Source: Bacteroidales bacterium
GTDB lineage: Bacteria; Bacteroidota; Bacteroidia; Bacteroidales; WCHB1-69
Assembly: GCA_047638115.1 (NCBI GenBank)
Contig: JBLJBB010000057.1
Coordinates: 15,686 to 79,685, forward strand
Reading direction: 5' to 3'
DNA: 64,000 nucleotides
Of this stretch, positions 3,295 through 37,658 are shown one piece after another. The translations under genes and the position numbers were made by a program. The notes under the pieces were generated by a model. It was not told the DNA's origin. It saw only the letters and a list, made by a program, of their open reading frames with translations, and searched no databases. Numbering within the stretch: position 1 is the stretch's first letter; every line of letters starts with the position of its first letter.

Positions 3295-5562
3295 TTAAAA
3301 TCCTCTTTGTCCTCTTTGCGTAGCTGGAATCACAGCGGTTCTTTTCCTAACAGTTGGTGTAGATTTTGAAGCAGGTTTCGTAATAGGAGTAGTAGTTTTT
3401 GTACTTTTTGTATGACTAGTTTTTGATTTTGTTGTTGTTGGGTTACTTGTTTCTGGATGATTATTGGAAGGAGTTGAATTATCAGCTACATAATCACTCC
3501 CACCAGAAGAAGATCTTTTGTAATTTTTCATCGTTTTCACTCTACTGATCTTCGAAGAAAGATTGTGCCCTCCGGTTGTATAAAAATCATTAAACGTGAT
3601 TATAACTGAGGGAGTTTTCAAATATTTAGCCGATGAACCACTTAAACTATTTACAAAATAGTTCTTTACATCTTGCAAATTCAATCCCAGTAAATCTAGA
3701 TTATTCTTGCCAATGTGATTGATTAAATCTCTTACTTTTCTCGATTTTAGGAAAATTTGATACATCTCTTGTGTTTTGATCCGCTCCCCTCTAGGATATG
3801 CCAACATCTTAGCTAATGAATTAAATTCTGAATCAGACATTTTTTTAAGCAAGTTTCTAACTGTTACAAACTCTTTTCGCAACGATTCTTTAGAATTTTT
3901 CAAATAATCATCAATAATTCGCTCTTTTTGATCTTGAGAATAAGTGTAATTATATTGTTGCTCGTTTTTTTGTAATTGCTCCTCCAATTTTGATTTGTGG
4001 TATCCTTTGAATGTTTTACTAGTAACAGAGTCTGAAACAAAGGCAATTTGCTGGTCAGTTAACGTTTTAAAGAGATTTAATACATTTTTTACAGGGGTGA
4101 GTAGTAAATAGGGTTTGTTTTTTGGGAAAGCATTGTAGGTTTCCCCTTTGTAGGAGATTCCATTATCCATAAATAATTGATACAAAGCTGTATATTGAAC
4201 CACCCTCGCTAAATCTGTATTTCCTAACGTGGCAAAATAGTTGTACGCTTTCTTTTCATACGATCTTCCTATCGATTTACCGGACTCTGGAGAATTGAAG
4301 TATGATACAGGTAATGAACCGGTTCGATTGAGGGTGTATATGGTAACTTGATCTAAATCAATGGCATACATCGCATCTGCTGTATTCCAGTTGTACACAA
4401 GTTCATTGATTCCTAACATTTTAAAAAGTGGTTGACTAAAAGGAAAGTAGGGGGGATTAGGATATTGATAATTGGATTCCTGAATGGTCCCATTTTCAGA
4501 CCAGTCTTTTAAGAAAATATCTGTAATGGTCATTAAATGACCAAATTCTGTGTTTTCCAGTTCTTTGCTTAGATAGGTGGGGCACCAATCGCGGCCACTT
4601 TTCATTTTCCCTGCTAAAAAGTCATTAACATCCAAGCTTTGTGACAACTCTTTTTCGGTAACGGAAGCCAGTAAGAGGATCGATTCCACTTGCAAAGGAG
4701 GTAAAGTAGTTAAAGATGCTTCCCGTTCTCTCCCAATAATCACTAACATAGAGCTATCGGCTAAAGCACCAAGAATGAGATCTGCATCCAGTGTAAATTG
4801 ACGAATATAGTCTAGTTGATCTTTCAAATCACTTTTTTTCTCAATTGCCCAGGCCACAAAGCCAGGGTTTTCACTGAAAAAGACCCCTCTTTTTTGTGTT
4901 TTGAATATTTTGTCAACATTAAATTTTTGAGTAGTATCCTGTAGATCAATAAAAACCTCTTGATCTTCAATAAACCATTGATTAAATTCATACAATGAAA
5001 TCTGATAATCTAAATTATCTTTTGAAAAATAGACTCTTTCTTCTTTCACTGGCAAATTGGTCACCACAGGTTTGTAATCGGACAAATAGAGGAGTTTTGA
5101 CAATTGTTTTATTCTTAGTTCAATATTCTCATCCGTTGCATTTGCTACGGATATCATAATATCCTTAACAAAACCATCATATCCCATAGGATGTTTTACA
5201 ATTTCAACGGAGTGATTAAACTCAGAAAAAATGGATTTAATGGAATCCACTTCAAAATAGGGTGGTGGTTCAGAGATCACGATCAATTTACTGCTATCTG
5301 CAAATTTAGCAAGTGCAATCGTTTGAAAATGAAATCTAAAATGATCTCTAAAGTTTTTATAGGTGGAGTCTTTTTGTGTAAAAACATCTCTGGATTCTAG
5401 TGTCATATTTTGAATGGGTATAAACTCTGTTTTCAATAATTGTGCTGTTTCCCTTTTCACAAGATCACCAATCCTTGTGAAGTGCCAAAGTGAAACGCCT
5501 AGCAGTAGTAAGGAAACAAATGTGATAAGAAAAATGCTCTTTTTGCGATTTAAAAATCTCAT
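3295..5562 (-). CDS. Hypothetical N-terminally membrane-anchored protein with Ser/Thr/Pro/Lys-rich C-terminal tail
   Basis: 755-aa ORF with one N-terminal TM (IFLITFVSLLLLGVSLW). Last ~90 aa are low complexity (TSNPTTTKSKTSHTKSTKTTTPITKPASKSTP). Only 2 nt from the aroB stop. No family recognised. Confidence 0.6.
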   Translation of the reverse strand: MRFLNRKKSIFLITFVSLLLLGVSLWHFTRIGDLVKRETAQLLKTEFIPIQNMTLESRDVFTQKDSTYKNFRDHFRFHFQTIALAKFADSSKLIVISEPPPYFEVDSIKSIFSEFNHSVEIVKHPMGYDGFVKDIMISVANATDENIELRIKQLSKLLYLSDYKPVVTNLPVKEERVYFSKDNLDYQISLYEFNQWFIEDQEVFIDLQDTTQKFNVDKIFKTQKRGVFFSENPGFVAWAIEKKSDLKDQLDYIRQFTLDADLILGALADSSMLVIIGREREASLTTLPPLQVESILLLASVTEKELSQSLDVNDFLAGKMKSGRDWCPTYLSKELENTEFGHLMTITDIFLKDWSENGTIQESNYQYPNPPYFPFSQPLFKMLGINELVYNWNTADAMYAIDLDQVTIYTLNRTGSLPVSYFNSPESGKSIGRSYEKKAYNYFATLGNTDLARVVQYTALYQLFMDNGISYKGETYNAFPKNKPYLLLTPVKNVLNLFKTLTDQQIAFVSDSVTSKTFKGYHKSKLEEQLQKNEQQYNYTYSQDQKERIIDDYLKNSKESLRKEFVTVRNLLKKMSDSEFNSLAKMLAYPRGERIKTQEMYQIFLKSRKVRDLINHIGKNNLDLLGLNLQDVKNYFVNSLSGSSAKYLKTPSVIITFNDFYTTGGHNLSSKISRVKTMKNYKRSSSGGSDYVADNSTPSNNHPETSNPTTTKSKTSHTKSTKTTTPITKPASKSTPTVRKRTAVIPATQRGQRGF

Positions 5563-9994: not shown

Positions 9995-11344
9995 TTATTT
10001 TTTAAGATTGTGTTTTTTAACAAAATCTAAAAGAACAGTTTCTAAAGTTGGAGTTCCAATTTCTTGAAGTTCATAACCAATTTTAACCACAGGTTGTTTG
10101 ATTTTCACAAAACGTGGTAGGTCAATAGGAGTACCAATAACTACTGCATCACAAGGAGTGTTAGCGATAGTATCTTCAAGGTCTTTCATTTGAGCATCTC
10201 CGTATCCCATAGCTGGAAGTAATGTTCCAATGTTTGGATATGTTACGAATGTATCTTTTAAAGTACCCACAGTGTAAGGTCTTGGGTCAATAAGTTCAGA
10301 AGCACCATATTTCATAGCAGCAACAGTACCTGCACCAATTTTCATTTCACCGTGAGTTAAAGTTGGACCATCTTCAACAACTAAAACTCTTTTACCTTTG
10401 ATTAATTCTGGTTTGTCAACAGTTAAAACTGAAGCAGCATCAATCATGATAGCAGAAGGATTAATTTTTGCTAAGTTAGCTCTAACGGTATTGATATCCA
10501 CTAAAGAAGCAGAGTCAATTTTGTTCATAACGATAACGTCAGCCATTCTAGCAACCACTTCACCTGGGTAGTAACTAACTTCAGCACCTGGGCGCAATGG
10601 GTCAGCAACACCAACATAAAGATCTGGAGTATAGAAAGAGAAGTCATTGTTTCCACCATCCCAAAGGATAATATCACAACCGTCTGGATCATTTTCAGCA
10701 GCGCGAACGATAGCTTCATAATCAACACCAGCATAAATTACATTTCTTTTTGTAACTACGTGTGGTTCATACTCTTCCATTTCTTCGATAGTACAGTTGT
10801 GTTTTTTAAGATCTTCAACAGTAGCAAATCTTTGAACTTTTTGTTTGTTCAAATCTGGATCGTAAGGCATTGGGTGGCGAATAGCAACCACTTTAAGTCC
10901 CATACCTACCAAATACTCAATAATTCTTCTAGAAGTTTGTGATTTTCCACATCCTGTACGAGTTGCACCAACTGCGATTACTGGTTTTGTAGATTTGATC
11001 ATGGTATCTTTTGGTCCCATTAAAGTAAAGTTAGCACCCGCTGCATTTACGATAGCACTGATTCCCATAACATAAGAGTAAGGTTTATCACTATAAGCGA
11101 AAACACACTCATCTACGTTAAATTTTTTGATTAAAGCAGGAAGTTCAGATTCTTTAAAGATAGGAATTCCACTTGGATAAAGATCTTCTCCTGCTAATTC
11201 TTTAGGGTAAGGTCTTCCGTCGATACCAGGAATTTGTTCAGCAGTAAAAGCAACCACGTTATAATTCGGGTTGTGTCTGAAATAGGTATTGAAGTTGTGG
11301 AAATCTCTTCCAGCTGCTCCAATAATAATAACGTTTCTTTTCAT
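9995..11344 (-). CDS. COG2403-family P-loop protein (predicted GTPase / cyclic 2,3-diphosphoglycerate synthetase-like)
   Basis: 449 aa. N-terminal Rossmann-like MKRNVIIIGAAGRDFHNF and P-loop GATRTGCGKSQTS. Family recalled from memory, not searched. Confidence 0.6.
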   Translation of the reverse strand: MKRNVIIIGAAGRDFHNFNTYFRHNPNYNVVAFTAEQIPGIDGRPYPKELAGEDLYPSGIPIFKESELPALIKKFNVDECVFAYSDKPYSYVMGISAIVNAAGANFTLMGPKDTMIKSTKPVIAVGATRTGCGKSQTSRRIIEYLVGMGLKVVAIRHPMPYDPDLNKQKVQRFATVEDLKKHNCTIEEMEEYEPHVVTKRNVIYAGVDYEAIVRAAENDPDGCDIILWDGGNNDFSFYTPDLYVGVADPLRPGAEVSYYPGEVVARMADVIVMNKIDSASLVDINTVRANLAKINPSAIMIDAASVLTVDKPELIKGKRVLVVEDGPTLTHGEMKIGAGTVAAMKYGASELIDPRPYTVGTLKDTFVTYPNIGTLLPAMGYGDAQMKDLEDTIANTPCDAVVIGTPIDLPRFVKIKQPVVKIGYELQEIGTPTLETVLLDFVKKHNLKK

Positions 11345-18645: not shown

Positions 18646-18762
18646 ATGGCTTCGACGCAGAAATTTGTGGAGTTTGTTTTAGAGCAAATTCATGACGCAG
18701 GGGAGATTACTTCTCGAAAGATGTTTGGAGAATATGCCATCTATGCTGATGGGAAAAAGTAA
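18646..18762 (+). pseudogene. Truncated TfoX/Sxy N-terminal-domain gene (38 codons)
   Basis: MASTQKFVEFVLEQIHDAGEITSRKMFGEYAIYADGKK* matches the first third of TfoX_N proteins (..RKMFGEY.IY.DGK), then stops. Not in the ORF track because it is too short. Confidence 0.55.
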
Positions 18763-18826
18763 AACTGAGGGTACTTCAATAACTCATAATGTCTCAATTT
18801 TCCAATTTTATGTTGAAAGATGCCTC

Positions 18827-18834
18827 TATTTTTG
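18827..18834 (+). promoter_or_regulatory. Candidate -7 box for the VOC gene
   Basis: TATTTTTG, 34 nt upstream of ATG at 18869, inside the ORF-track N-terminal extension. Confidence 0.4.
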
Positions 18835-18868
18835 CCATCTAATTCATTGTTTAACAAATAAAAATAAA

Positions 18869-19228
18869 ATGAAAAAATTTATTGAATGGGTGGAGATCCC
18901 AACCGCAGATTTTCAAAGAGGTCTTAACTTCTACAATTCCGTGTTTAAACTTTCAATGGAGCCGATCGATTCCGGTACAGAACAGATGGCGTGTTTCCCA
19001 ACCGGGGAAGGGGCAATTTTTTACAAAGAGGGGTACCTCCCTTCTGATCAGGGAAGTATGATTAGTTTTACTGTACCAGACTCGATCGAAGAGACAGCTC
19101 TTCGCGTGGAAGCTCTCGGCGGAAAAGTGTTGATCCCTAAAACTCCGATTGATGAAGAGGGGAGAGGATATTTTGCAGTTTGTATTGACTCTGAAGGAAA
19201 TAAGATCGGTTTATACGAAAAATTTTAA
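18869..19228 (+). CDS. VOC (glyoxalase/bleomycin-resistance/dioxygenase) family protein
   Basis: 119 aa from the internal ATG. Single VOC-like beta-alpha-beta module (MKKFIEWVEIPTADFQRGLNFYNSVF..GGKVLIPKTPIDEEGRGYFAVCIDSEGNKIGLYE). Confidence 0.7.
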   Translation: MKKFIEWVEIPTADFQRGLNFYNSVFKLSMEPIDSGTEQMACFPTGEGAIFYKEGYLPSDQGSMISFTVPDSIEETALRVEALGGKVLIPKTPIDEEGRGYFAVCIDSEGNKIGLYEKF

Positions 19229-19271
19229 CCTTACAAAAAGTGTCCATGAAAATGTGCACTTCCTTATTTTT

Positions 19272-20084
19272 ATGTGTATTCAAATAGCATCACCATCCGA
19301 CAAACTGAAACCCTTTGTTAAACAATATTGGGCGGTTGAGAATGTGCTGCAACAAGGGGAACAATATTCACAACGGGTGATCCCAAGCGGATTGACGGAG
19401 CTGATCATGTACCTCGATCATAAACCTACTGTTTCTACCAATAACAGATTGATGGAGGATCCTTTTTTGCTTAACGGACAACAAAACGATTTTTACGATC
19501 TTTTGATCTCCGAAAATCTATCATTATTCTCCATCTCTTTTCATCCACAAGGGTTGAGCCAATTTTTTAAGCTACCCCTTCAGGAGCTGTCCAATCAAGA
19601 TATTCCGTTGCGATATATCAATAAAGATCTCTACACTGAACTGGAAGCGCGGTTATCGCCACAGATATCGTTTCAACAAAAAATCGAGATTGTGGAGCAA
19701 TGTTTGATCAGGTTGCTGCACGACAACAAAAAAGGGTACGAATTTCAACGAATCCATAACATCATCGAAATGATTCGGGTGAAACAGGGGTTGGTTGAGA
19801 TTGAAGAGCTCTCCTCTGTGGCTTGTCTGAGTAGGAAACAGTTCGAGCGCATTTTTCTGGAATATATCGGAATCTCTCCGAAACAATATTTAAAGATTAT
19901 CCGTTTCCAATCCTCAATCTTTCTGAAATCGAAGAATGAGGATATTTCATTAACCGAATTGGCTTATGAGAGTGGCTATTATGATCAGTCACATTTCATC
20001 AATGATTATAAGAAAATGACAGGAATAACACCAAAACAGTTTTTTCTGGATTGTCAATCGATCCATTCCGATTTCTTTGAGTAA
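19272..20084 (+). CDS. AraC-family transcriptional regulator
   Basis: C-terminal double HTH (..LSRKQFERIFLEYIGISPKQYLKIIRFQ.. and ELAYESGYYDQSHFINDYKKMTGITPKQF). Internal ATG chosen to avoid overlap with the VOC gene. Confidence 0.8.
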   Translation: MCIQIASPSDKLKPFVKQYWAVENVLQQGEQYSQRVIPSGLTELIMYLDHKPTVSTNNRLMEDPFLLNGQQNDFYDLLISENLSLFSISFHPQGLSQFFKLPLQELSNQDIPLRYINKDLYTELEARLSPQISFQQKIEIVEQCLIRLLHDNKKGYEFQRIHNIIEMIRVKQGLVEIEELSSVACLSRKQFERIFLEYIGISPKQYLKIIRFQSSIFLKSKNEDISLTELAYESGYYDQSHFINDYKKMTGITPKQFFLDCQSIHSDFFE

Positions 20085-20135
20085 TTTTTTAACATTTTTT
20101 TTAGTTTGTTGCAGAAAGTGAATTTAACTTTTGAT

Positions 20136-20143
20136 TATATTTG
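20136..20143 (+). promoter_or_regulatory. Candidate -7 box for the lipoprotein / Cys-His-rich gene pair
   Basis: TATATTTG, 60 nt upstream of ATG at 20204. Confidence 0.4.
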
Positions 20144-20203
20144 CATTCTAATTAAATTATTGTGATTATTAATAAAAAATATGTAAAACTAAAAACTAAA
20201 AAA

Positions 20204-20404
20204 ATGAAAAAACTATTTATCGTTCTTTTTGCAGCGGGACTATTGATCTCTTGCAATTCCAAAAAAGTGGAGCCACAACCAGAAACGGCTGCTCCTGTAG
20301 TACTTGAAGCAGAAGTGGAACAAGCTTTACAAAAAAATATTGAGCTTAATGAGCAAATCAATGAGCTTGATGCTGAATTAGAAACTATTATAAACGAACA
20401 ATAA
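20204..20404 (+). CDS. Small lipoprotein with acidic coiled-coil tail
   Basis: MKKLFIVLFAAGLLISC lipobox, 66 aa. Tail is EAEVEQALQKNIELNEQINELDAELETIINEQ. Confidence 0.65.
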   Translation: MKKLFIVLFAAGLLISCNSKKVEPQPETAAPVVLEAEVEQALQKNIELNEQINELDAELETIINEQ

Positions 20405-20417
20405 AAAAAACTGAGAT

Positions 20418-21203
20418 ATGAAAAAACTAATGATAATCGTAACAGCTTTCCTATTTGTTTTTGCTGTTAGTGCTCAAAATGCGAAAACTGAAACCAAAAA
20501 AGAGGTTAAACAAGAAGTAAAAAAAGAAGTTAAAGCTGAACATAAATGCGCAGGTGATACAAAAACTGACCACAAATGTGCAGATAAATCTAAAGATGCT
20601 AAAGGTTGCTGCGACAAAAATAAAGATAAAAAAGAGTGCGCAGACAAAGGGAAAGACCACAAATGCGCTGACAAAGGAAAAGATGCTAAAGGTTGCTGCG
20701 ACAAAGGTAAAGACCATAAAGGTTGTACAGACAAAGGGAAAGATCACAAATGCTCTGACAAAGGAAAAGACCATAAAGGTTGTGCAGACAAAGGAAAAGA
20801 TCACAACTGTGCTGACAAAGGTAAAGATGGAAAATGTTGTTCTGAAGGGGAAGCTAAAAAAGGTGATTGTTGTAAAGATGGAAAAGCTTATGGACACCAT
20901 AAAGATGGCAAATGTGGACGTGATTTTGGTCAAGAACGCGCTAAAAATGCTAAAAATAAAGTAGAGAAAGAAACCGTGGTTAAAGAGGTTGCTGCTGAAG
21001 TGGATCAAGCTATTGTAACAACTAAAAACCGTACTCAAGAGGCACGTACTGCTGTTCAAGATAAATATAAGAAAAAACAGATCACTAAAGCACAATACGA
21101 AGAAAAAATTAAACGTATTGATGAGATCGAAAAAGAGGTGATTCGTATTGAAAACGAACGCAAAGCTACTGATCAGGTGATCAAAACAAAAGTTTCAAAG
21201 TAA
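20418..21203 (+). CDS. Secreted Cys/His/Lys/Asp-rich tandem-repeat protein with C-terminal coiled coil (putative metal-binding)
   Basis: Signal peptide ..FAVSAQ. Residues 42-169 carry about 10 units of the (H)K(G)C(A/S/T)DKGKD type, with 17 Cys and 9 His. The C-terminal ~90 aa are K/E-rich helix. Confidence 0.75.
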   Translation: MKKLMIIVTAFLFVFAVSAQNAKTETKKEVKQEVKKEVKAEHKCAGDTKTDHKCADKSKDAKGCCDKNKDKKECADKGKDHKCADKGKDAKGCCDKGKDHKGCTDKGKDHKCSDKGKDHKGCADKGKDHNCADKGKDGKCCSEGEAKKGDCCKDGKAYGHHKDGKCGRDFGQERAKNAKNKVEKETVVKEVAAEVDQAIVTTKNRTQEARTAVQDKYKKKQITKAQYEEKIKRIDEIEKEVIRIENERKATDQVIKTKVSK

Positions 21204-21241: not shown

Positions 21242-21289
21242 TATTGAGTCAAAGTTAAACGTTATTTAATTTTGACTCAATATTTTTTT
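21242..21289 (+). terminator. Rho-independent terminator after the Cys/His-rich gene
   Basis: Perfect 12-bp stem TATTGAGTCAAA / TTTGACTCAATA followed by T7. It overlaps the TTG start proposed by the ORF track for the next gene. Confidence 0.65.
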
Positions 21290-22804
21290 ATGAAAAAACA
21301 AATTCAAGTTCTTGTAGCTGTTGTATCAGCATTAGTTATTACCATATTGTTCCATTACAAAGAGATAGGATTAAACCTATTACTTGTAGAGATTCCTGTT
21401 TTTATTTGGCTTTTATGGACCAAACAAATTAAACTACACAATTATATACAAATTTCACTGTTTGTGGCTACACTACTGACTGGATTTGCAACTGTTCTGG
21501 TGTATTCGATCCTCTCTTATGTAGTCCATTTTATGCTGCTATTTGTATTTGTAGGTTTGATGATTTATCCTGAAACAAAATCGTTACTTACTTCTATCTC
21601 ACTTTCCATTGTTAACTTATGGAAATCTCAACTCAATTTTTTACACCATTTGAATGAAGTGAGATGGGGAAAATTTAAAATTGGTAGAATGATCCGTTTT
21701 GTTTTGGTTCTCATCGTTCCGATATTAGTCATACTTTTATTTATAGGTATTTACAGAGCGTCAAATCCTGTTTTTAATGATTATATGGAAAACGTTGGAG
21801 TTTATTTAGATAAAATCTGGAATTTTATCATTAAATATGTTGACATGTCTGTGATTCTTACGTTTATTCTAAGTTTAGGGATCAGTTCTTTTGTTCTGAT
21901 TAGAAGTACGACACCTCAGTTTATTGAGATAGATCAAAAAAGTTCAGAATTTTTAAAAAGAAAAAGGGGTTTCTCTTTTGTCCCTTTTCACAATTTAAGT
22001 CTTAAAAGGGAGTTACAATCTGCCATTTTTTTATTAGTTGTTTTAAATGGGCTTTTGTTACTGCTGAATATGATCGATATGAAAAGTGTATGGTTTGGAT
22101 TTGAATGGAAAGGGGAGACTCTTAAAGATTTTGTTCATGAAGGAACTTATTACCTGATCTTCTCAATCCTAATCTCCATAGCGATTATTTTGTTCTATTT
22201 TAGAAAAAATCTTAACTTTTACCTTAAAAATAAGTGGTTGAAAAGATTGAGTTATGTTTGGTTGATTCAAAACGGATTTTTAGCCATCACCGTGTTGATC
22301 AGAACCTTTTTATATATCCAACACTTTGCACTTGCATACAAGCGTATTGGTGTTATTATTTTTCTCATACTCACTATTTATGGTTTATACACAGTTTTCA
22401 TCAAAGTGAAGGATAAAAAATCAATTTTTTACTTGTTTAAGATGAATAGCTTTGCCTTTTTTATGGTTTTAAGTGTTGCAGCTCTTTTCAATTGGGATCT
22501 CATCATTGCCAAATATAACTTCAAACATTATCAAACCTCATTTGTACATCTCGATTTTATGGCTGATTTGTCGCACAAAACACTCCCTTACTTAGATAAA
22601 TCAATAGAAGAACTAAACAATATTGATTCTGTTCAAACGATCAAGTTTATGTTTAGAGGAGATTATTTTATGACTCCTGAAGATTATATTCTACGGATTG
22701 AAAAAGAGAAAGAGGAGTTTAAAACGAATTGGGAAAATAAATCGTTCCTTTCCTGGAATCTCCCCGAGTATTTAGCATATAAAAAGCTTTTTAATAATCA
22801 ATAG
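21290..22804 (+). CDS. Polytopic membrane protein (DUF4153/DUF4173-like, family uncertain)
   Basis: 504 aa from ATG at 21290 with about 10-11 hydrophobic helices and a soluble C-terminal ~100 aa. CDS is solid; the family label is a weak recollection. Confidence 0.7.
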   Translation: MKKQIQVLVAVVSALVITILFHYKEIGLNLLLVEIPVFIWLLWTKQIKLHNYIQISLFVATLLTGFATVLVYSILSYVVHFMLLFVFVGLMIYPETKSLLTSISLSIVNLWKSQLNFLHHLNEVRWGKFKIGRMIRFVLVLIVPILVILLFIGIYRASNPVFNDYMENVGVYLDKIWNFIIKYVDMSVILTFILSLGISSFVLIRSTTPQFIEIDQKSSEFLKRKRGFSFVPFHNLSLKRELQSAIFLLVVLNGLLLLLNMIDMKSVWFGFEWKGETLKDFVHEGTYYLIFSILISIAIILFYFRKNLNFYLKNKWLKRLSYVWLIQNGFLAITVLIRTFLYIQHFALAYKRIGVIIFLILTIYGLYTVFIKVKDKKSIFYLFKMNSFAFFMVLSVAALFNWDLIIAKYNFKHYQTSFVHLDFMADLSHKTLPYLDKSIEELNNIDSVQTIKFMFRGDYFMTPEDYILRIEKEKEEFKTNWENKSFLSWNLPEYLAYKKLFNNQ

Positions 22805-22903: not shown

Positions 22904-25900
22904 ATGACAACATTAAAATTAGGGATAGATATTGGATCCACTACCGTTAAAGTATTGATCACCGATGCAACGTTACACCCCTTATTTTCAAGATATTCCA
23001 GACACAACACCAGGGTAGAAGATACGCTGGTGTCTTTGTTGTCAGAAATTCATCAAATATTCCCGACACAACACTTTTCTATTGCCTTTACTGGCTCCGC
23101 TGGAATGGGAATTGCGGAAAAAACAGGCGCGCTCTTCATTCAGGAGATCATCGCTGCTACCGAATTGGTGAAACACGACTATCCGGAAGTGAAAACCATT
23201 ATCGACATTGGTGGGGAGGATGCCAAATTGGTGTTGCTCGATAATCTTGCCAATCCTGATATCCGGATGAATGGAAACTGTGCTGGAGGAACGGGTGCAT
23301 ACATTGATCAGATGGCTGCTCTGTTGAATGTTTCTATAGAGCAACTGAATGATTGGGCAGAAAATCACTCCCGGATCTATCCTGTGGCTTCACGATGTGG
23401 CGTGTTTGCTAAGACAGACGTGCAAAACTTAATCAGCAGGAAAATAGACCCTCAGGATATAGCTGCTTCCATCTTTGAAGCAGTGGCCAATCAAACCCTC
23501 AACACGTTAGCGCGTGGGTGTCGGTTGAATACTCAAATATTGCTGTGTGGTGGGCCCTTAACCTACATCCCTTTTCTTCGCGCTGCCTTTGCTAAAGTGC
23601 TCCATATCGACCTATCCAACTTTGTGATCCCAGATCAAGGCGCCCTTTTTACCGCTTTGGGTACCGCTTTTTCGATCCCACAAAACACTCCCCCAACTAC
23701 CATTCCAGAGTTTTTGGCAAAACTTACTCAACCTTCACCCAAACCCATGTCAGATTATCACTTGAGTCCGCTGTTTGGGAGTCAGCAAAATTTTGATACA
23801 TGGCAACAAGTAAGAAACCTGGTACCAATACCCCAAAATGGGATCTCCCAAAGTGAAAAGCTTTTCCTGGGGATCGACTCAGGATCAACCACAACCAAAA
23901 TAGTGGTATTAAATGAACATAAAGAGATGGTGTTCCATTTCTACAAACATAACAACGGAGATCCGCTCCAAACCATTACCCACGGATTACTCTCCCTTTA
24001 CGATAAGATGAATCAACTTCCTAATCTGCCTAAAATGGTGGCTTCTGCCGTGACTGGTTACGGGGAGGAGTTGATCCGCAATGGTCTGGGGATAGACTTT
24101 GGAATTGTGGAGACGGTTGCCCACACACTTGCCGCCCAGCAATTGGACCCAGAGGTTACCTTTGTGCTTGATATTGGGGGGCAAGATATGAAGGCGATCT
24201 TTATCCAGCAGGGTATCATCACCAACATCGAGATCAACGAGGCGTGCTCCTCCGGTTGTGGCACCTTCATTGAGGGGTTTGCCAACACCTTGGGCTACTC
24301 TTCAGAAGCTTTTGCACAATTGGCGATCAATGCTCAAACCCCTTACGATCTGGGCTCCCGCTGTACGGTGTTTATGAATTCCAAAGTGAAACAAGCACTC
24401 CGCGATGGTGCTTCTGTGGAGGATCTCTCCGCAGGACTCGCGTATTCGGTGATCAAGAATTGTTTGCACAAAGTGCTACGGATCGAGTCGAATGCCGATA
24501 TTGGAAACACCGTTGTGGTGCAAGGGGGAACCTTTAAAAATAGTGCCGTGTTCCGCAGTCTGGAGATCCTTTCAGGTAAAAAGGTGGTGATCTCCGATTT
24601 TCCCGAATTGATGGGGGCTTATGGCGCGGCAATTTACGCTTTTGATAAACAAAATACACTACAAAAGTCGGGGTTCGTGGGGTTTGATCATCTCCAACTG
24701 GGCCTCTCGTTTCAATCTACCTACAAAGCTTGTATGGGGTGTTCTAACCGTTGTATGATAACAAAATATCACTTTAACAACGGCAACAGCGCCTTTGCAG
24801 GGAATAAATGTGAAAAAATATTTTCTAACAGTGGAACAAAGATGATGAAAGGGGAGAACCTTTTTGACCAGAAATGGAGCTTATTTCACAATAGAAAATC
24901 GGAAAATAGAAACCATACAACGGTTGGACTACCGCTCATCCTCAACATGTACGAGAACTATCCGTTCTGGCACACTCTTTTTACCGAGAGTGGGTTCCAT
25001 GTGATCCCCTCAGATGACAGCACCCAGGCGCTCTATCAGAAAGGGATTGGCGGCGCGATGTCGGACAACATCTGTTTCCCCGCGAAGTTAGCCCACGGCC
25101 ATATCGAAAATCTGATTGAAAAACGAGTAGATCGGATCTTCTTACCGATGGTGGTGTATGAACAGAAAAAGTTCTCTAAATCTACCAACAGCTTTAATTG
25201 TCCTGTGGTGACGGGCTACCCGGAAGTGCTCAAGAGTGGCGTACTGGATCGGCTTCCCGACAACATGGTGATCGACACCCTCCCTTTTAGTTTTCAGTCG
25301 GAGAAGTTGTTACAACAGGCATGTAGGCGCTACTTAAAGAGTCTGGGTGTTCCTAACTCCCTTTTTCAGCTCGCTTTTCAGAAGGCGATTCAGGAGCAGG
25401 CAAGATATAAACGGAAAGTGATGGAAGCGAATACGCAGATCCTCGAGCGGGCGATCAGAGATCAAAAACCGATTGTGATGGTGGCGGGGCACCCTTACCA
25501 TATGGATCCCCTGATTCATCAAAAGGTGTCACAAATTCTCTCCGATCTGGGGGTGTGCGTGATCAATGAAGAGGTGGATATGAGCCAATCGGAACACTCT
25601 TTTGATCCTTTCTTTACCATCTCACAATGGGAATATACCAACAGATTACTCCAAGCAACGAAATGGATTACCGAGCAACCTTTCCCCATTGGGATGGTGC
25701 AGCTCAACTCTTTTGGTTGCGGACTCGACTCGATCATCCTGAGTGAGATCAAGCACCTTGTGAACCAAAAGCAGATCCCCTACGCCTGGGTGCGGATCGA
25801 TGAGATCGCCAGTCCCGGTTCGGTGAAGCTCAGACTGAGATCATTAGTAGAATCTATGAAAATGCGAAAACCTATTGAAAATATCAATAAATATACAATA

Positions 25901-27133
25901 GCAAATCAACAGCGAGCCATCTTTGAAGAGAAAGACAGGCATAGAACGATACTGTTTCCATGGTTTTCCGATTTTTACTCTCCGTTGGCTCCCATCCTGG
26001 CGAAACAGGTGGGGTACAACTTTGAAAACCTCCCCCCATCCGATCAGGAATCTATCGATTTGGGTTTGAAATATGCCAATAATGAGGTGTGTTATCCCGC
26101 CACTCTGGTGGTAGGAGATATTATCAAGGCGCTCCAAAGTGGCAAGTACAATCCTAACGATATTGCAATTGGGATCACCCAAACGGGGGGACAGTGTAGG
26201 GCTACCAATTACTTGTCGCTGATCAAAAGGGCAATGGCGAATGCTGGGTATGATGAGGTGCCGATCATTGGATTGGGCTCTCCCGATGCGATTTTCAACT
26301 TGCAACCCGGATTTCAGCCGAAGTGGCGCTCCATCATCCGGCCCACGTTCTCAGCGCTCCTTTTTGCCGATGCGATTTCCAAGTTATATTACGCTACGGC
26401 CTCTCGTGAAGAGACCAATGTGAACTCAAAGCGTCTGAAAGAGAAGTATATTAAGTTAGCTCAACAGGTATTGGAAAACAAAAAGCACAATCAATTGATC
26501 CCTTTATTGGAAAAGGCGGTGCTCGAGTTTAACCAGGTTCCTTTGAAATATCAAGAAGTGAAAACGGTGGGATTGGTAGGAGAGATCTATGTTAAGTTTA
26601 ATGCATACGGTCAATATTATATCATCGATTGGCTCATAGACAACCACATCGCGGTGGAGATTCCGCCGTTGATGGAGTTTATGATGCAGGCGTTTGTCAA
26701 TACCAAAGCGCAGCGCAACGACTTTATCGCCCCCAGAAATGGGTTAGATTTCATCGAGTCGCTTATGGAGTTGTATGCCAACCATTTTATCGGCAAGTTT
26801 GAGAAGGTGTTGCAGCAGTTCCGCTACTACAAGCCAACTCCCTCGATCCACCACGCGGCGTCGCTCGCCTCTGAGATCTTAAATTTGAATCATCAGTATG
26901 GGGAGGGGTGGCTGATTCCCGCTGAGATAGCCACTTTTGCGGCACATAACATCCATGATGTCGTGTGTTTGCAACCGTTTGGCTGTATAGCCAACCACAT
27001 CATTGGCAAGGGGATGGAGAAGAAAATCAAGCAACGCTATCCCCAGTTGAACCTCTTGTACCTCGACTTCGACTCCGGCATCAGTAAAGTGAATGTGCTT
27101 AATCGATTACATTTTTTACTACAGAATCAATGA
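22904..27133 (+). CDS. Fused acyl-CoA dehydratase activase-related protein (two BcrAD/BadFG ATPase modules plus CoA-enzyme-activase-associated C-terminal domains)
   Basis: Two ASKHA phosphate-1 motifs (LGIDIGSTTVK and LGIDSGSTTTK), with DIGGEDAK / DIGGQDMK. 1409 aa. The C-terminal half resembles YjiM/DUF2229-type partners. Confidence 0.8.
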   Translation: MTTLKLGIDIGSTTVKVLITDATLHPLFSRYSRHNTRVEDTLVSLLSEIHQIFPTQHFSIAFTGSAGMGIAEKTGALFIQEIIAATELVKHDYPEVKTIIDIGGEDAKLVLLDNLANPDIRMNGNCAGGTGAYIDQMAALLNVSIEQLNDWAENHSRIYPVASRCGVFAKTDVQNLISRKIDPQDIAASIFEAVANQTLNTLARGCRLNTQILLCGGPLTYIPFLRAAFAKVLHIDLSNFVIPDQGALFTALGTAFSIPQNTPPTTIPEFLAKLTQPSPKPMSDYHLSPLFGSQQNFDTWQQVRNLVPIPQNGISQSEKLFLGIDSGSTTTKIVVLNEHKEMVFHFYKHNNGDPLQTITHGLLSLYDKMNQLPNLPKMVASAVTGYGEELIRNGLGIDFGIVETVAHTLAAQQLDPEVTFVLDIGGQDMKAIFIQQGIITNIEINEACSSGCGTFIEGFANTLGYSSEAFAQLAINAQTPYDLGSRCTVFMNSKVKQALRDGASVEDLSAGLAYSVIKNCLHKVLRIESNADIGNTVVVQGGTFKNSAVFRSLEILSGKKVVISDFPELMGAYGAAIYAFDKQNTLQKSGFVGFDHLQLGLSFQSTYKACMGCSNRCMITKYHFNNGNSAFAGNKCEKIFSNSGTKMMKGENLFDQKWSLFHNRKSENRNHTTVGLPLILNMYENYPFWHTLFTESGFHVIPSDDSTQALYQKGIGGAMSDNICFPAKLAHGHIENLIEKRVDRIFLPMVVYEQKKFSKSTNSFNCPVVTGYPEVLKSGVLDRLPDNMVIDTLPFSFQSEKLLQQACRRYLKSLGVPNSLFQLAFQKAIQEQARYKRKVMEANTQILERAIRDQKPIVMVAGHPYHMDPLIHQKVSQILSDLGVCVINEEVDMSQSEHSFDPFFTISQWEYTNRLLQATKWITEQPFPIGMVQLNSFGCGLDSIILSEIKHLVNQKQIPYAWVRIDEIASPGSVKLRLRSLVESMKMRKPIENINKYTIANQQRAIFEEKDRHRTILFPWFSDFYSPLAPILAKQVGYNFENLPPSDQESIDLGLKYANNEVCYPATLVVGDIIKALQSGKYNPNDIAIGITQTGGQCRATNYLSLIKRAMANAGYDEVPIIGLGSPDAIFNLQPGFQPKWRSIIRPTFSALLFADAISKLYYATASREETNVNSKRLKEKYIKLAQQVLENKKHNQLIPLLEKAVLEFNQVPLKYQEVKTVGLVGEIYVKFNAYGQYYIIDWLIDNHIAVEIPPLMEFMMQAFVNTKAQRNDFIAPRNGLDFIESLMELYANHFIGKFEKVLQQFRYYKPTPSIHHAASLASEILNLNHQYGEGWLIPAEIATFAAHNIHDVVCLQPFGCIANHIIGKGMEKKIKQRYPQLNLLYLDFDSGISKVNVLNRLHFLLQNQ

Positions 27134-27192
27134 AATGTTTTCTAAATTGGCTTTTCATTTTCAATCCAGAAAGAGTTCATTTGTTTTTTCTT

Positions 27193-27200
27193 TACTTTTG
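27193..27200 (+). promoter_or_regulatory. Candidate -7 box for the 193-aa OMP-like gene
   Basis: TACTTTTG, 37 nt upstream of ATG at 27238. Confidence 0.4.
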
Positions 27201-27237
27201 CATATCATTCTAAAATTTTTGTTTTAATTCGATAAAT

Positions 27238-27819
27238 ATGAAAAAATGGTTCTTTCTCTTTGTTGTTTTCACTTACTCTCTGTTTCTTTATGCAAATGAA
27301 CCAAAAAAAGATATCTATAGTGGGGGAATGTTGTTTTATCAGCCCGGATATACAATGGCTCATAACCCTCATCAAGAGATTACGGGGTTAAGTAATTCAA
27401 TTGGTGGTATTTTAAGATTCTATTTTTGGGATTATTTTACTTGTGGTATATATGGTGGAAGCCAAAAAACACATTATAATACTATAAATTCTACAAATTC
27501 TTATATGAATTTGGGTTATGGAGGAGTATTTGCTGGTGGTGTATTAAAAACAGGAAAATTAAGATTTGTACTCTCTTTTTTTGCAGGTAAAGGTGCCATA
27601 AGTAACTTGCATATTGAAAAACAAAACAATACTATACTTGAAGATGCAAATTTGTATAAATATGGTGTTTTTGTATATTCTCCAATTTTTAGTGCTGATT
27701 ATATGCTTACTTCAAAGATTTCGTTGACAACACAAGTCATATGTTTAACTACGCAAATTCCTGATGAGAAGCACTTTATTAACCCCACTTTTCAGATTGG
27801 GATTTTATTTAATCGATAA
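27238..27819 (+). CDS. Hypothetical outer-membrane beta-barrel-like protein
   Basis: Signal peptide, alternating aromatic/Gly-rich strands, C-terminal ..FQIGILFNR. No family recognised. Confidence 0.55.
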   Translation: MKKWFFLFVVFTYSLFLYANEPKKDIYSGGMLFYQPGYTMAHNPHQEITGLSNSIGGILRFYFWDYFTCGIYGGSQKTHYNTINSTNSYMNLGYGGVFAGGVLKTGKLRFVLSFFAGKGAISNLHIEKQNNTILEDANLYKYGVFVYSPIFSADYMLTSKISLTTQVICLTTQIPDEKHFINPTFQIGILFNR

Positions 27820-27842
27820 TATTTTGGATTTAATAATGTTGA

Positions 27843-30800
27843 TTATAATAGTGCGTCAAATAGAATTTCTAAAGGGTGACAAGAATCTACTTTTGTGCCA
27901 TCTTTAATTTGATGCCGACAACTTGTGCCACAGGCAGCAATCATTGATTCATTTTGATATGCTCTTATAGTTGGAAATAAAATTAATTCTCCAATTTTTT
28001 GTGACATTTCGAAATGCTCTTTTTCAAAACCAAAAGAACCAGCCATACCACAGCACCCATCTTCGATTAGTGTAACTCTGTAATTGATTGGAATCTGCAT
28101 CATTCTGATACTGGCACTCTTATCAGAAATTGCTTTTTGGTAACAATGAGCATGAAATAAGATATGTTTTTGTTCTCGAGAAAATTTTGTTCTATCGATA
28201 TCCCCTTTTTCCATTAGAAGAGCAATAAATTCATCTATAAGATAAGTGTTTTTTGATAGATGAATAGCTTTAGATTTTAAATTTCCGTTTAATAGATCAG
28301 GGTACTCATCTCTAAATGATAGTATTGCAGAAGGTTCAATCCCAATTAATGGTGTTTCATCAGAAATTAATGGGCTGTAAAGTTTTACGTTTTTTTCAGC
28401 ACATTTCCGTGCACTTTTTAACATCCCTTTTGAGAGATATGTTCTACCACTGAAAGCAGATTTAATAATGAGAACTTCATAACCAAGTGCTTCCAATAAA
28501 AGAATCCCTTTTTTGCCAATTTCTGTATCATTTCTATTCGTAAATTCATCACAAAACAGATACAACTTTTTTAGTGTATTTGGTTTCTGATCTCCTCTTT
28601 TTTTTATCCAAGAATATAAAGATTGCTTATGTATGGTTGGTAAACTTCGTTTAGGAGCAAAACCAATCACTTTTTTCAGAAGATTAGATGCTTTTTTGTT
28701 TGTAACCGTCCAGTTGTAAATAGATGAAAAGTAACTCCCTAACTCATTAATAATTGGGTAGTTTCCAATAATTCTACTTCTCAATGGAATTCCATGATGA
28801 TCATAATAATGTTGCAAAAATTCTGCTTTCAATTTGGTCATATCAACCTGTGAAGGACATTCAGCTTTACATGCCTTACATGCTAAACACCAAGATAATA
28901 TTTTATAAATCTCTTTTTCATTATATTCCAAATATAAACTTGTATTTCCAGAAGTATTTGATCTTTTTTTATCAAAAAATTGATTCAACTTTGAAGGAGT
29001 TTGTAAATATTCCCTTAATAGGTTTGCTCTGGCTCTGGTACTGAAATACTCATCATTCGTCGCTTGGAATGAGGGACACATGGCCCCAGAAAAGAGATGG
29101 GATTTTCTACAATCACCTGAATTACAACACTTATTTACCGCATTTTCAAAGCCGTCGGTTTCAGGAAAATCAAAATAGGATTGATTACTAATATGTGTTG
29201 AAAAAGGATTCACTCTTAGATTTTGATCTATGGGAGGAGTATTTGTAATTTTGCCTACGTTAAAAATATGGTTTGGGTCGAAGAGATTTTTAATTGAAAT
29301 TAGGAGTTCATAGTTTTTATTTCCTAACATAAAAGGGATGAAAGCTCCTCTCAATCTCCCATCACCATGTTCTCCGCTAATTGATCCTTTATATTTCTTT
29401 ACTAATTGTGCATCCCATTGTGCTATGAAAGAGAATAGTTGATACTCTTCAACTTTTTGTAAGTTTAATATAGGTTTCTTATGAATTTCACCTGTAGAAA
29501 TATGTCCATAATATATTACATCTACCTTGTTTTCCTTACAAATCTGATCAAATTCAGCAAAATAGGAGGGGAGATCTTTAGGTAATACAACACTATCCTC
29601 TACAAAGGATCTCGCTTTGGCATCCCCTTTTAAATTGGACATGATTCCTAATCCGGCTTTTCTTAGATTCCAAACGTTATTAAGATTTGACCCTTTTAGA
29701 ATGGGAAAATGGAATCCAATTCCTTCCATTTTTAGTAATTGAATACATTGCGAACATTTTGTTAGAAGCTCATCTTCACTGTCCTCTGTGAACTCTATGG
29801 CTAATAAAGTTATGGTCTCTTTGTGATTCTCAACATCTAAAAAATCAATATTTTTAGCTTGAGATCTATTCTCTAAACTAAGCTTTAATATCTGATTGTC
29901 AATAAGTTCTACCGCAGACGGTTTCAGTTTTAAAGCAATGATATTGCCTTTAAGTGTTTCAGTAATCGAATGAGTGTGAACTGCAATAACCGCTTTATGG
30001 ATTGAGGGTAAAGGTGAGAGTTTCACTTTAATAGCAGTCACAAATGCTAAAGTTCCTTCCGATCCTGCTAATAATTTGCAAAGATTGAAGGGATGTTCAC
30101 TTTTGTAGGTTTGATCATCTTGTGTTGAAAAAAGATCTGAATAGATGAGTTCGTCTATGGCATAGCCACAATTACGCCTAATTATTTGCTTCTCTGGAAA
30201 GTGATTCTTAATTTCCTGTTGGTTCTGAGAATCAGATAAAATGGCCCAGAGAGAGTCATATATTTTATATTCAAAACTATCCTTATTTAGATTCCTTATA
30301 AAATGGGGAAAATTATCAATATTTTTAAAATAAAAATCGGATCCATCCGACAAATACCCTTTCACTTCCAAAATATGTTCTCTGGTAGTTCCATAAACTA
30401 ATGCATTGGCACCGCATGAGTTATTTCCAAACATGCCACCTATACATGCTCTGTTTGAAGTGGATGTTTCTGGTGCAAAAAATAATCCTTTTTGGGATAG
30501 ATGTTGATTTAAAATATCTCTTACAACTCCTGGCTCAACCCAAGCGAATTGTTCTGATTCATTAATCTCAATAATGTGATTAAAATATTTGGAAATATCA
30601 ACCACTAAACCATTCCCAACAACTTGACCAGCTAATGAAGTGCCTCCCGCCCTAGGAATCAGTGAAATTTTATTTTCCAGAGCAAATTGAATCAACAGTT
30701 TTATATCTTCATTTACTTTGGGATAAACAACTCCTATGGGGATTTCTCTGTATTCAGAAGCGTCGGTAGCATAAATATATCTGTATGATGATTGGTCATA

Positions 30801-30845
30801 AATTTCACCTTGAAAAGATTTTTTATATAAATCCAATAAGTTCAT
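27843..30845 (-). CDS. FAD-binding and (Fe-S)-binding oxidoreductase (GlcD-like plus GlpC/CCG-like fusion)
   Basis: FAD PCMH-domain motif PRAGGTSLAGQ, ferredoxin-type CLACKACKAECP, and C-terminal Cys-rich CCG-type repeats (..GCCGMAGSFG..). 1000 aa. Confidence 0.8.
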   Translation of the reverse strand: MNLLDLYKKSFQGEIYDQSSYRYIYATDASEYREIPIGVVYPKVNEDIKLLIQFALENKISLIPRAGGTSLAGQVVGNGLVVDISKYFNHIIEINESEQFAWVEPGVVRDILNQHLSQKGLFFAPETSTSNRACIGGMFGNNSCGANALVYGTTREHILEVKGYLSDGSDFYFKNIDNFPHFIRNLNKDSFEYKIYDSLWAILSDSQNQQEIKNHFPEKQIIRRNCGYAIDELIYSDLFSTQDDQTYKSEHPFNLCKLLAGSEGTLAFVTAIKVKLSPLPSIHKAVIAVHTHSITETLKGNIIALKLKPSAVELIDNQILKLSLENRSQAKNIDFLDVENHKETITLLAIEFTEDSEDELLTKCSQCIQLLKMEGIGFHFPILKGSNLNNVWNLRKAGLGIMSNLKGDAKARSFVEDSVVLPKDLPSYFAEFDQICKENKVDVIYYGHISTGEIHKKPILNLQKVEEYQLFSFIAQWDAQLVKKYKGSISGEHGDGRLRGAFIPFMLGNKNYELLISIKNLFDPNHIFNVGKITNTPPIDQNLRVNPFSTHISNQSYFDFPETDGFENAVNKCCNSGDCRKSHLFSGAMCPSFQATNDEYFSTRARANLLREYLQTPSKLNQFFDKKRSNTSGNTSLYLEYNEKEIYKILSWCLACKACKAECPSQVDMTKLKAEFLQHYYDHHGIPLRSRIIGNYPIINELGSYFSSIYNWTVTNKKASNLLKKVIGFAPKRSLPTIHKQSLYSWIKKRGDQKPNTLKKLYLFCDEFTNRNDTEIGKKGILLLEALGYEVLIIKSAFSGRTYLSKGMLKSARKCAEKNVKLYSPLISDETPLIGIEPSAILSFRDEYPDLLNGNLKSKAIHLSKNTYLIDEFIALLMEKGDIDRTKFSREQKHILFHAHCYQKAISDKSASIRMMQIPINYRVTLIEDGCCGMAGSFGFEKEHFEMSQKIGELILFPTIRAYQNESMIAACGTSCRHQIKDGTKVDSCHPLEILFDALL

Positions 30846-36650: not shown

Positions 36651-37658
36651 TTATACAAACATTCTACATTTTTTATATCTCACTTTTCCATCCTTTACTT
36701 GAATCGATTTTTCAAGAAATACTGCAGTAAGATCTCTCTCGTGTTTGATTTGTTCAATTAACAAAAACCAATACAAATAGTTTTGTAAATATGTTGAAGA
36801 TACCCCTTTAAATCTCTCCATCCAGAACAATAGATCAAAGATCAATTTTTGAGAGTTTTCGGTGTTAAAATATTTGTTTTTCCCTTTAATCCTTTTCTGA
36901 TTCTCTAAAACATGATAACTGAATTTTTTTCTTATGGCAAACAGCTTTAAGGAAATATTTTGATCGATACATAATTTCTTTACACTTTTGAGTTTTGAGA
37001 AGAAAGTATCTCTTAAATCAAACTCACTAACTTTCCCAATTTTGATTACTTTGAAATCAATTTTATGGTTTCGATCGTTAACAACAATAACAGAAACATG
37101 CTCTTGATTTTTTTTTAATTCTTCATTATCTGATTTAATTTCTCCTTTTGCACCGATTTTTTTTGCTTTTGCTCCCTGTCCTTTTTTTGAGAATGGGAAA
37201 AGATATTCAATGATTTCAATAATTCCACTAAATTGTTTGGGAACATGTTCAGCCAGAGTAGAAATAATCTTATGTCTCCAATCAAAGGTGGTTTGAATAC
37301 TTAAAGAAAGCAATTTTGCGCATTCTTTTAAACTACTTCCAGATAACATTTCAAAAATGAAAGGTTTTAGTAAATGTTTTTTCTTTAAATATGAAATACA
37401 AGTTCCAGTGAATTCATTAAATCTTTTACTACATTTTTTGCATTTATAGTTTTGTACCCCTTTACGTTTTCCGTATAATATAAATTGCGATTTTCCACAA
37501 TGTGGACAAACTTTAATATTTTTTCGATTGATATCTTCACAAATATCAAAAAGAGGAGTTTTTAATGTAATTTTGGAATAAAGAGTATCAACTATTTTCT
37601 TTTGGACTTCAATATTTGAAGTGTTGAAAACCTGGGTAATTGGGGCTAGTTCATTCAT
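36651..37658 (-). CDS. IS1595-family (ISXO2-like) transposase with N-terminal zinc ribbon and HTH
   Basis: CPHCGKSQFILYGKRKGVQNYKCKKCSKRFNEFTG zinc ribbon, HTH SLKECAKLLSLSIQTTFDWRHKI, and C-terminal ..FWMERFKGVSSTYLQNYLYWF typical of the ISXO2-like DDE domain. IS ends not identifiable. Confidence 0.6.
   Translation of the reverse strand: MNELAPITQVFNTSNIEVQKKIVDTLYSKITLKTPLFDICEDINRKNIKVCPHCGKSQFILYGKRKGVQNYKCKKCSKRFNEFTGTCISYLKKKHLLKPFIFEMLSGSSLKECAKLLSLSIQTTFDWRHKIISTLAEHVPKQFSGIIEIIEYLFPFSKKGQGAKAKKIGAKGEIKSDNEELKKNQEHVSVIVVNDRNHKIDFKVIKIGKVSEFDLRDTFFSKLKSVKKLCIDQNISLKLFAIRKKFSYHVLENQKRIKGKNKYFNTENSQKLIFDLLFWMERFKGVSSTYLQNYLYWFLLIEQIKHERDLTAVFLEKSIQVKDGKVRYKKCRMFV

Follow-up and report, generated by a model that had tools for sequence, protein, structure and literature searches.

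The DNA considered here is a stretch of 64,000 nucleotides (nt) from a Bacteroidales bacterium (GenBank assembly GCA_047638115.1, contig JBLJBB010000057.1, positions 15,686 to 79,685 of the forward strand); we refer to the whole stretch as the window and number positions from its first letter. Our subject is a pair of adjacent genes on its + strand that form one transcription unit. The first (20204..20404) encodes a lipoprotein of 66 amino acids (aa) with a signal peptide and the lipobox L-I-S-C17, and stops 13 nt before the ATG of the second. The second (20418..21203) is an open reading frame (ORF) for a 261-aa exported protein composed of a Sec signal, an array rich in cysteine and histidine, and a helical tail. 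A preliminary description of this DNA had already paired the two genes and placed a strong terminator behind them. Both observations hold: the lipoprotein partner is kept across the family described below, and an intrinsic terminator (21242..21289, + strand), consisting of an 18-pair stem (21242-21282) and a T run, closes the two-gene unit. The Cys/His protein is a clade-specific variant of a widespread, undescribed two-gene envelope module of the Bacteroidota.

The signal peptide of the Cys/His protein, as read from the sequence, spans residues 1-19 (20418..20474, + strand; MKKLMIIVTAFLFVFAVSA followed by Q, cleavage by signal peptidase I at ...AVSA|Q), so that Gln20 would be the mature N-terminus. 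This Gln at +1 is invariant across 36 aligned family members and fits the Q-rule of Bacteroidetes signal peptides (PMC5837995). A K/E-rich spacer, QNAKTETKKEVKQEVKKEVKAE, follows (20475..20540, + strand) and shows a 12-nt periodicity in its DNA. Next comes the Cys/His array (residues 42-169; 20541..20924, + strand), with 13 Cys or CC clusters in a chain that is predicted to be disordered. Its exactly 17 Cys and 9 His, the counts given in the preliminary description, are accompanied by 36 Lys, 24 Asp and 19 Gly, while F, W, L, I, V, M and P are all absent and a single Tyr occurs in 128 aa. In proportion, the array holds 13% Cys, 28% Lys, 15% Gly and 7% His. The long ORFs of the window, whose G+C content is 34%, average 1.16% Cys, and relative to this average the binomial chance of finding at least 17 Cys in 128 residues is about 2e-13.

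The tandem-repeat build that had been noted for this segment was equally borne out. Cys or CC stand at residues 44, 54, 64/65, 74, 83, 93/94, 103, 112, 122, 131, 140/141, 151/152 and then 166, that is, at intervals of 9-11 residues between clusters except for a final one of 15. The units follow the consensus K-D-H-K-C-A-D-K-G-K-D or a variant with G-C-C, and at the DNA level Tandem Repeats Finder detects periods of 30, 57 and 87 nt between 20568 and 20836. The array ends in CC(140/141)..CC(151/152)..HH(160/161)..C166, or CC-x9-CC-x7-HH. In total it has four CC doublets and one HH pair, and CxC and CxxC motifs are absent. An antisense ORF of 214 aa (20451-21095, - strand), rich in F, S and T, mirrors the Lys, Asp and Gly codons through the repeat and is not a gene. 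No second copy of the Cys/His gene is present within the window.

The end of the Cys/His segment overlaps a motif, G-K-A-Y-G-H-H-K-D-G-K-C-G-R-D-F-G-Q-E-R-A (residues 155-175; 20880..20942, + strand), that defines the protein family. Beyond it lies a C-terminal helical hairpin (20925..21203 including the stop codon, + strand), with helices at about residues 168-218 and 224-260 in the AlphaFold2 model. Values of the predicted local distance difference test (pLDDT) for the hairpin are 78-93 in the full-length model, and average 83 and reach 97 in a model of the domain; residues 1-166 are predicted to be disordered, with a pLDDT of about 30. The K/E-rich tail of the preliminary description is therefore helical as it had proposed, in the form of a predicted hairpin, but it is not an appendage of the repeats: tail and motif together are the conserved, defining part of the protein, and the hairpin is its most conserved region.

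This conserved part leads to a large family. Searches of 1.84 billion cluster representatives with a profile of the C-terminal region, and with a follow-up profile that included the first distant hits, gave 53 further proteins of about 150-200 aa; the profile searches recover relatives at E values of 1e-17 to 1e-34. A metagenome scan added 145 more coding stretches, the best 80 of which were analysed as metagenome loci. The proteins share a common architecture: a signal peptide with Gln at +1, a disordered linker of charged, low-complexity sequence, a near-invariant motif and a helical hairpin. The family motif is G-[NH]-A-Y-G-[KR]-[DN]-K-x4-G-[RK]-[DE]-F-G-Q-x-R-A, in which G, (A), Y, G, K, G, F, G, Q, R and A vary little or not at all among 36 diverse relatives. 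Residues 155-261 of the window protein, its last 105 or so, align with 35 diverse relatives (alignment A7), with about 90 aa in the hairpin part. The window pair has all three characters of the family, namely the motif with the hairpin, the Sec/signal peptidase I signal with Gln at +1 before a disordered linker, and an acidic lipoprotein encoded upstream.

The preliminary description had also stated that it knew of no characterised family with this repeat. This stands as far as curated families are concerned: Pfam and NCBIfam searches returned nothing beyond sub-threshold coiled-coil noise for the window protein and its lipoprotein, and no consistent family match for the 36 relatives. Sequence searches of the PDB with two profiles found nothing below E = 0.02, the hits all being generic coiled coils, Foldseek comparison of the full-length and domain models with the PDB found no match at E <= 0.001 and generic helical hairpins only, and the literature on exported or periplasmic metallothionein-like repeat proteins yielded no account of it. 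An orphan it is not, however, since the C-terminal part of the protein defines a wide, uncurated family in the Bacteroidota.

What varies within this family is the linker. Elsewhere in the family linkers are rich in K/E, in Q/E/R, in N, in P or in His, and the number of Cys per protein is 0-2 in 57 other relatives versus 11-18 inside the 15-protein clade that contains the window protein. In a rough neighbor-joining tree this Cys clade is monophyletic, and its sisters P0017 and P0022 have an E/Q/R-rich linker. From these counts and the tree placement, the Cys/His array is a lineage-specific replacement of a compositionally plastic linker. Two further, distant and unrelated members of the family, P0052 (20 His) and P0056 (11 His), have linkers rich in His and Asp (for example DKHDKYHDKHHDKHKDH, locus L010, 5001-5510). 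In these proteins a ligand-rich linker seems to have originated independently, so that such linkers would have arisen at least twice. In P0052 and P0056 the motif itself reads AYGHHKDG and AYGRHKNG. In a set of short relatives (P0066 and P0068-P0072; 126-144 aa) the GNAYGKDK...G[RK][DE]FGQ motif is kept and is followed by a K/R-rich tail in place of the hairpin, so that the motif may be a separable module; several of these proteins share an extra GGFAVGGYDN motif.

The second constant of the family is the lipoprotein. In the window its mature chain has 50 aa, a net charge of -9 and a C-terminal heptad-patterned amphipathic helix (LEAEVEQALQKNIELNEQINELDAELETIINEQ), and the lipobox Cys is its sole Cys. 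Wherever a locus extends far enough, the partner gene is immediately preceded, in the same orientation and at a distance of about 1-50 nt, by a gene for a small lipoprotein: this is so in the window and the nine loci of alignment A8 (six of them distant relatives with unrelated flanks), in L007, in all of L017-L024, and in 65 of the 65 metagenome loci with enough upstream DNA (45 recognised by pattern and 20 by inspection; 8 loci lay at contig edges, and some loci overlap the sets examined earlier). Mature lipoproteins across the family have about 45-55 aa and are strongly acidic, with net charges of -6 to -21, and their C-termini form an amphipathic helix ending in ...L-D-x-E-L-E-x-I-I-N-E or ...D-S-L-L-N-E-L. 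The linker plus hairpin of the partner carries a net positive charge in 9 of 10 pairs; in L014 the hairpin by itself has a net charge of -4. When all flanking ORFs of about 90 loci were clustered, no other neighbour was found to be common to the sub-clades, synteny being sub-clade-specific only. The lipoprotein is thus the obligate partner of the hairpin protein.

This obligate co-occurrence and the complementary charges suggest an interaction in which the lipoprotein helix lies against the hairpin and anchors the exported protein to a membrane. Surface lipoproteins of Bacteroidetes carry an export signal, an acidic motif of the K-(D/E)2 or S-D-D-D type at +2 to +6 behind the lipidated Cys (PMC5080379). 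The mature N-terminus of the window lipoprotein, C-N-S-K-K-V-E-P-Q-P-E, has no (D/E)2 doublet at +3 to +6, and the pair is therefore taken, with low confidence, to face the periplasm. The lipoproteins of some distant members look export-competent (C-S-E-A-E-E-E, C-S-N-D-D-Q).

Close relatives of the Cys/His protein are few. A search of 5.8 billion proteins found the 15 proteins of the clade, which share 52-100% identity and measure 221-274 aa, and among 185,579 species genomes the carriers were four metagenome-assembled genomes (MAGs) of uncultured Bacteroidetes/Bacteroidales. The sources are wastewater and groundwater, the hosts being uncultured Bacteroidales-like bacteria, and several wastewater samples together yield 14 contigs that encode the identical Cys/His protein. 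The window also encodes a UvrC protein that shares 99% identity with its counterpart in the groundwater MAG 'Bacteroidetes bacterium HGW-Bacteroidetes-20'; the nearest named relatives of this UvrC, at about 68%, are in the Lentimicrobiaceae and Bacteroidales. This kinship, the occurrence in wastewater and a nearby gene for a BcrAD/BadFG-type activase suggest that the host is an anaerobe, in which case periplasmic thiols could stay reduced.

Within the clade, conservation is far higher in the hairpin region than in the array: over the last 95 or so residues, 50 of 94 columns are invariant. The arrays contain 8-13 units of 9-10 residues, and the number of units varies. Spacing is nonetheless regular: 131 of the 147 intervals between Cys clusters in the 15 proteins are 8-12 residues long, and of the 16 longer ones (14-19 residues) 13 are the last interval, through the motif region, and 3 fall at one N-terminal site; the regular array itself includes none of them. 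Despite about 40% divergence and independent reshuffling, no repeat unit in the 15 proteins is without Cys. His stands at position -2 of Cys in 75 of 163 Cys windows, and the two residues are found at variable positions of the motif too, which reads AYGHHKDGKCG here versus AYGKDKGDLSG elsewhere. Taken together, the aligned proteins indicate that the Cys array is clade-specific and probably kept by selection.

Variation of repeat number among strains, which had been anticipated from the DNA periodicity, is indeed observed. In locus L023 the promoter and the last 279 nt of the gene match the window at 99-100% identity; the array shows one insertion of 27 nt, equal to one unit, and one deletion of 60 nt, equal to two, so that whole units have changed. 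Nucleotide identity is also mosaic along the gene: L023 matches the window gene at 87% over the first 123 nt and at 100% over the last 279 nt, and L024 at 99% over the first 123 nt and at 90% at the 3' end. Such a pattern suggests recombination between alleles inside the gene.

The composition of the array invites comparison with metallothioneins, an operational class marked by high Cys content, few or no aromatic residues, CxC, CxxC or CC motifs and the binding of several metal ions in thiolate clusters, with SmtA/BmtA and MymT as its prokaryotic members. Like these, it is rich in Cys, Lys and Gly, virtually free of aromatic residues (one Tyr) and devoid of hydrophobic ones, and would be unable to fold without ligands; by analogy it would be expected to buffer Zn, Cu(I) or Cd at high capacity. 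It differs from them in being Sec-exported, in its 13% Cys, in having tandem units and no CxC or CxxC, and in its fused hairpin and lipoprotein partner. SmtA and BmtA are cytosolic proteins of about 55 aa with a zinc-finger-like fold. The 261-aa window protein, with its signal peptide, is not one of them and gave no Pfam or NCBIfam match at E up to 1, including to the Pfam family Metallothio_Pro. The Hpn and Hpn-like proteins and the C-terminal tail of HspA are, like the array, low-complexity His/Cys metal stores, and the EEGCCHGHHE of Hpn, a G-C-C followed by G-H-H, resembles GDCCKDGKAYGHH in the window (PMC10221980). Hpn of Helicobacter pylori, however, is cytoplasmic, about half His and has four Cys, and the two share no sequence homology. 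Membership in the Hpn and Hpn-like group, with about 30-50% His and runs of His, was rejected for an exported array with 7% His and one HH pair.

High-capacity metal buffers outside the cytoplasm include PcoE/SilE, which are disordered until metal binds, and Csp1. PcoE/SilE use Met and His as ligands, unlike the window array with its lack of Met. Csp1 is exported by Tat and folds into a four-helix bundle whose core is lined with Cys, and assignment to Csp1/Csp3 was rejected, as the Cys region here is predicted to be disordered, the signal peptide has no twin arginine and no family match was obtained. The lipoprotein for its part recalls Lpp/OprI in that about 50 aa of mature chain form essentially a single heptad-patterned helix. 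In contrast to Lpp/OprI, it ends in ...IINEQ with no C-terminal Lys for attachment to peptidoglycan, is strongly acidic and always occurs with a hairpin partner; the NCBIfam Lpp/OprI model gave a weak match in 1 of 36 partner proteins and none for the window lipoprotein. The periplasmic helical CpxP/Spy/ZraP proteins (LTXXQ) were likewise considered and dismissed: the window protein has a single invariant I-T-K-A-Q (residues 222-226) rather than two LTXXQ motifs in a hairpin, no Pfam match, LTXXQ and Metal_resist included, was found in it or in the 36 relatives, and there was no significant sequence or fold match in the PDB.

The reading we favour, as plausible though short of probable, is that the pair is an envelope-tethered, metallothionein-like buffer of thiophilic metals, to which the composition of the array points. 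In this mechanism the first gene would supply a small and highly acidic lipoprotein that, once mature, consists of hardly more than one amphipathic helix, and the second a Sec-exported, net-basic protein with a disordered linker, a G-N-A-Y-G-K-D-K-x4-G-R-E-F-G-Q-x-R-A motif and a C-terminal hairpin. Docking of the lipoprotein helix on the hairpin would hold the exported protein at the membrane, on the periplasmic side. Each unit would present one Cys or Cys-Cys, often with a His two residues before it, amid Lys, Asp and Gly, and the array could then bind and buffer large amounts of periplasmic metal ions, for example Zn, Cu(I), Ni or Cd, its 17 Cys and 9 His accommodating roughly 6-10 ions per chain. 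Gain or loss of whole units by recombination within the repeats might tune this capacity. The proposal follows from three considerations: a chain free of hydrophobic residues could be structured only by metal-thiolate/imidazole clusters or by disulfides, CC and His/Cys arrangements can anchor Zn and Ni, and an anaerobe could keep the thiols reduced. In peptides of Hpn and HspA, CC and His/Cys motifs are strong anchoring sites for Zn(II) and Ni(II) (PMC10221980). The His/Asp-rich linkers of P0052 and P0056 provide an independent parallel within the family.

Several points weigh against the buffer. Metal binding is proposed from composition, and the complex between lipoprotein and hairpin from co-occurrence and charge. 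In none of the examined loci does the pair have a linked gene for a metal-responsive regulator, transporter or chaperone. The metal ATPase that the preliminary description had placed 19 kb away was not found: the ORF 19 kb upstream encodes a PIF1-like helicase, and no P-type ATPase was found among the 29 other ORFs that were Pfam-scanned, which are part of the ORFs of the window. The array also lacks the classic CxC and CxxC arrangements. Its Cys content is under half the density of true metallothioneins (about 30%), and most Cys lie 9-10 residues apart, so that the chain would have to fold over long distances to bring them into clusters. In an oxidising periplasm these Cys would pair into disulfides instead. 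Finally, the array could serve a role in its uncharacterised parent family that does not involve metals.

Disulfides are the basis of an alternative that we consider rather unlikely, in which the periodic Cys form inter- or intramolecular bonds and the protein builds a covalent layer in the periplasm or at the outer membrane. In chlamydiae such a layer is built by the Cys-rich OmcA/OmcB complex, where a small lipoprotein, OmcA, is encoded in an operon with the exported envelope protein OmcB, and the layout seen here, a small lipoprotein and an exported Cys-rich protein, is alike. The strictly periodic spacing of Cys would also suit such a scaffold, as would the missing hydrophobic core, which leaves covalent or metal cross-links as the only means to structure the chain. 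Yet the lipoprotein has no Cys besides the lipid-modified one, the His that precedes Cys in nearly half of the Cys windows (75 of 163) is not needed for disulfides, and in a lineage that looks anaerobic a stable periplasmic disulfide network is less expected. Membership in OmcA/OmcB itself was rejected on the same lipobox Cys, on the absence of a Pfam match to the chlamydial outer-membrane protein families and on the short tandem units with His found here. The thiols might, on the other hand, stay free and act as a periplasmic redox buffer or carrier, either scavenging oxidants and electrophiles in a sacrificial or recyclable manner or, in a sulfidic habitat, carrying sulfane sulfur or polysulfide. 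This we regard as very doubtful. Seventeen exposed thiols on a chain predicted to be disordered, soluble and Lys-rich would fit it, and so would an organism from wastewater and anoxic groundwater; but none of the examined loci links the pair to a gene for a reductase, a thioredoxin-like protein or sulfur metabolism, and the conserved His by Cys and the terminal CC..CC..HH favour coordination over redox chemistry.

A more sceptical view is that the family needs only a long, hydrophilic, flexible linker and that a Cys/His unit was amplified by chance, its ligands having no specific role. Linker composition does differ widely across the family, arrays expand and contract quickly, and an 87-nt super-repeat in the array is 84% identical, so that part of the array is young. 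Such drift is nonetheless unlikely in our judgement: Cys is otherwise nearly excluded from the family, at 0-2 per protein, every unit in 15 diverged proteins keeps it, Cys and His have invaded variable positions of the motif (AYGHHKDGKCG against AYGKDKGDLSG), and unpaired Cys in exported proteins is normally selected against. Hardly credible, in turn, is a coupling of the pair to a downstream gene for a 1409-aa BcrAD_BadFG/DUF2229 protein, for instance in the supply or handling of iron, sulfur or metal. That gene does lie 3' of the pair in every Cys-clade locus, with a gap of only 8 nt in L002. The Cys/His protein, however, is exported and the activase-type protein belongs to a cytoplasmic family and has no signal peptide; a DUF4153 gene and the terminator intervene in the window, and a terminator is present in L001 as well; and the linkage is absent from all other sub-clades, so that it is most simply inherited synteny in a narrow lineage.

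The metal-buffer reading can be extended to the family at large, in a form that we find somewhat unlikely. The pair would be a phylum-wide envelope element in which the lipoprotein helix and both helices of the hairpin form a heteromeric coiled-coil tether, a functional counterpart of the Lpp type, that displays an exchangeable disordered periplasmic 'brush'; the Cys/His clade would be the first Sec-exported, membrane-tethered and repeat-tunable metallothionein, and the His-rich variants would represent another metal-binding version of separate origin. To our knowledge, bacterial metallothioneins are cytosolic, and periplasmic metal buffers use Met and His or a folded, Cys-lined bundle. If the array is a metal sponge, it would represent a different solution, an exported, lipoprotein-tethered thiol/imidazole chain whose capacity is changed by whole units, and could bear on metal tolerance and on the fate of metals in treatment plants as well as offer a compact natural scaffold for metal capture. 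Regardless of metals, the pair belongs to a conserved two-gene envelope module of the Bacteroidota that is not covered by any Pfam or NCBIfam model and has no assigned function.

Expression of the pair probably starts at a conserved promoter block, ATTTAACTTTTG-nn-TATATTTGCA (20122..20145, + strand), which lies upstream of the lipoprotein gene and is invariant in five otherwise diverged loci (alignment A9). The block includes a TAnnTTTG box (20136-20143) that we take to be a -7 element of the Bacteroidetes type; a sigma-70 scan gave no hit on the + strand. The invariant ATTTAACTTTTG (20122-20133), just upstream of this box, is too close to it for a -33 element and could be a binding site for a regulator. 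The nearest regulator had been identified as an AraC gene upstream. An AraC/DUF6597 gene, together with a preceding small ORF, is indeed there in the window (18692-20084), but it is strain-specific: in L017 and L019, where the Cys/His protein is identical, a TfoX_N gene and one for a Fib_succ_major protein are found upstream instead. The region upstream of the pair is thus variable between strains, and the AraC protein was discarded as the regulator of the pair.

On the 3' side, a terminator of differing sequence occupies the same place after the Cys/His gene in L001. In the window a gene for a DUF4153 membrane protein (21290-22804) separates the pair from the BcrAD_BadFG/DUF2229 gene, whereas in other species of the clade the large gene is directly next (L001, 8756-8896; L002, 1085-1093, the 8-nt gap), and the DUF4153 gene looks like a lineage-specific insertion. 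A scan of the window and of L006 against Rfam gave no match, and five ORFs of 292-755 aa in the window are without a Pfam match at the thresholds used (3295-5562, 9995-11344, 36651-37658 and 43712-44590 on the - strand and 39866-40753 on the + strand). The block at 22904-30845 encodes the 1409-aa protein, which is a fusion of two BcrAD/BadFG ATPase domains and DUF2229, a 193-aa protein without family and, convergently, a 1000-aa FAD-oxidase/4Fe-4S protein; its gene order is kept in L002, and it may represent an uncharacterised anaerobic redox system.

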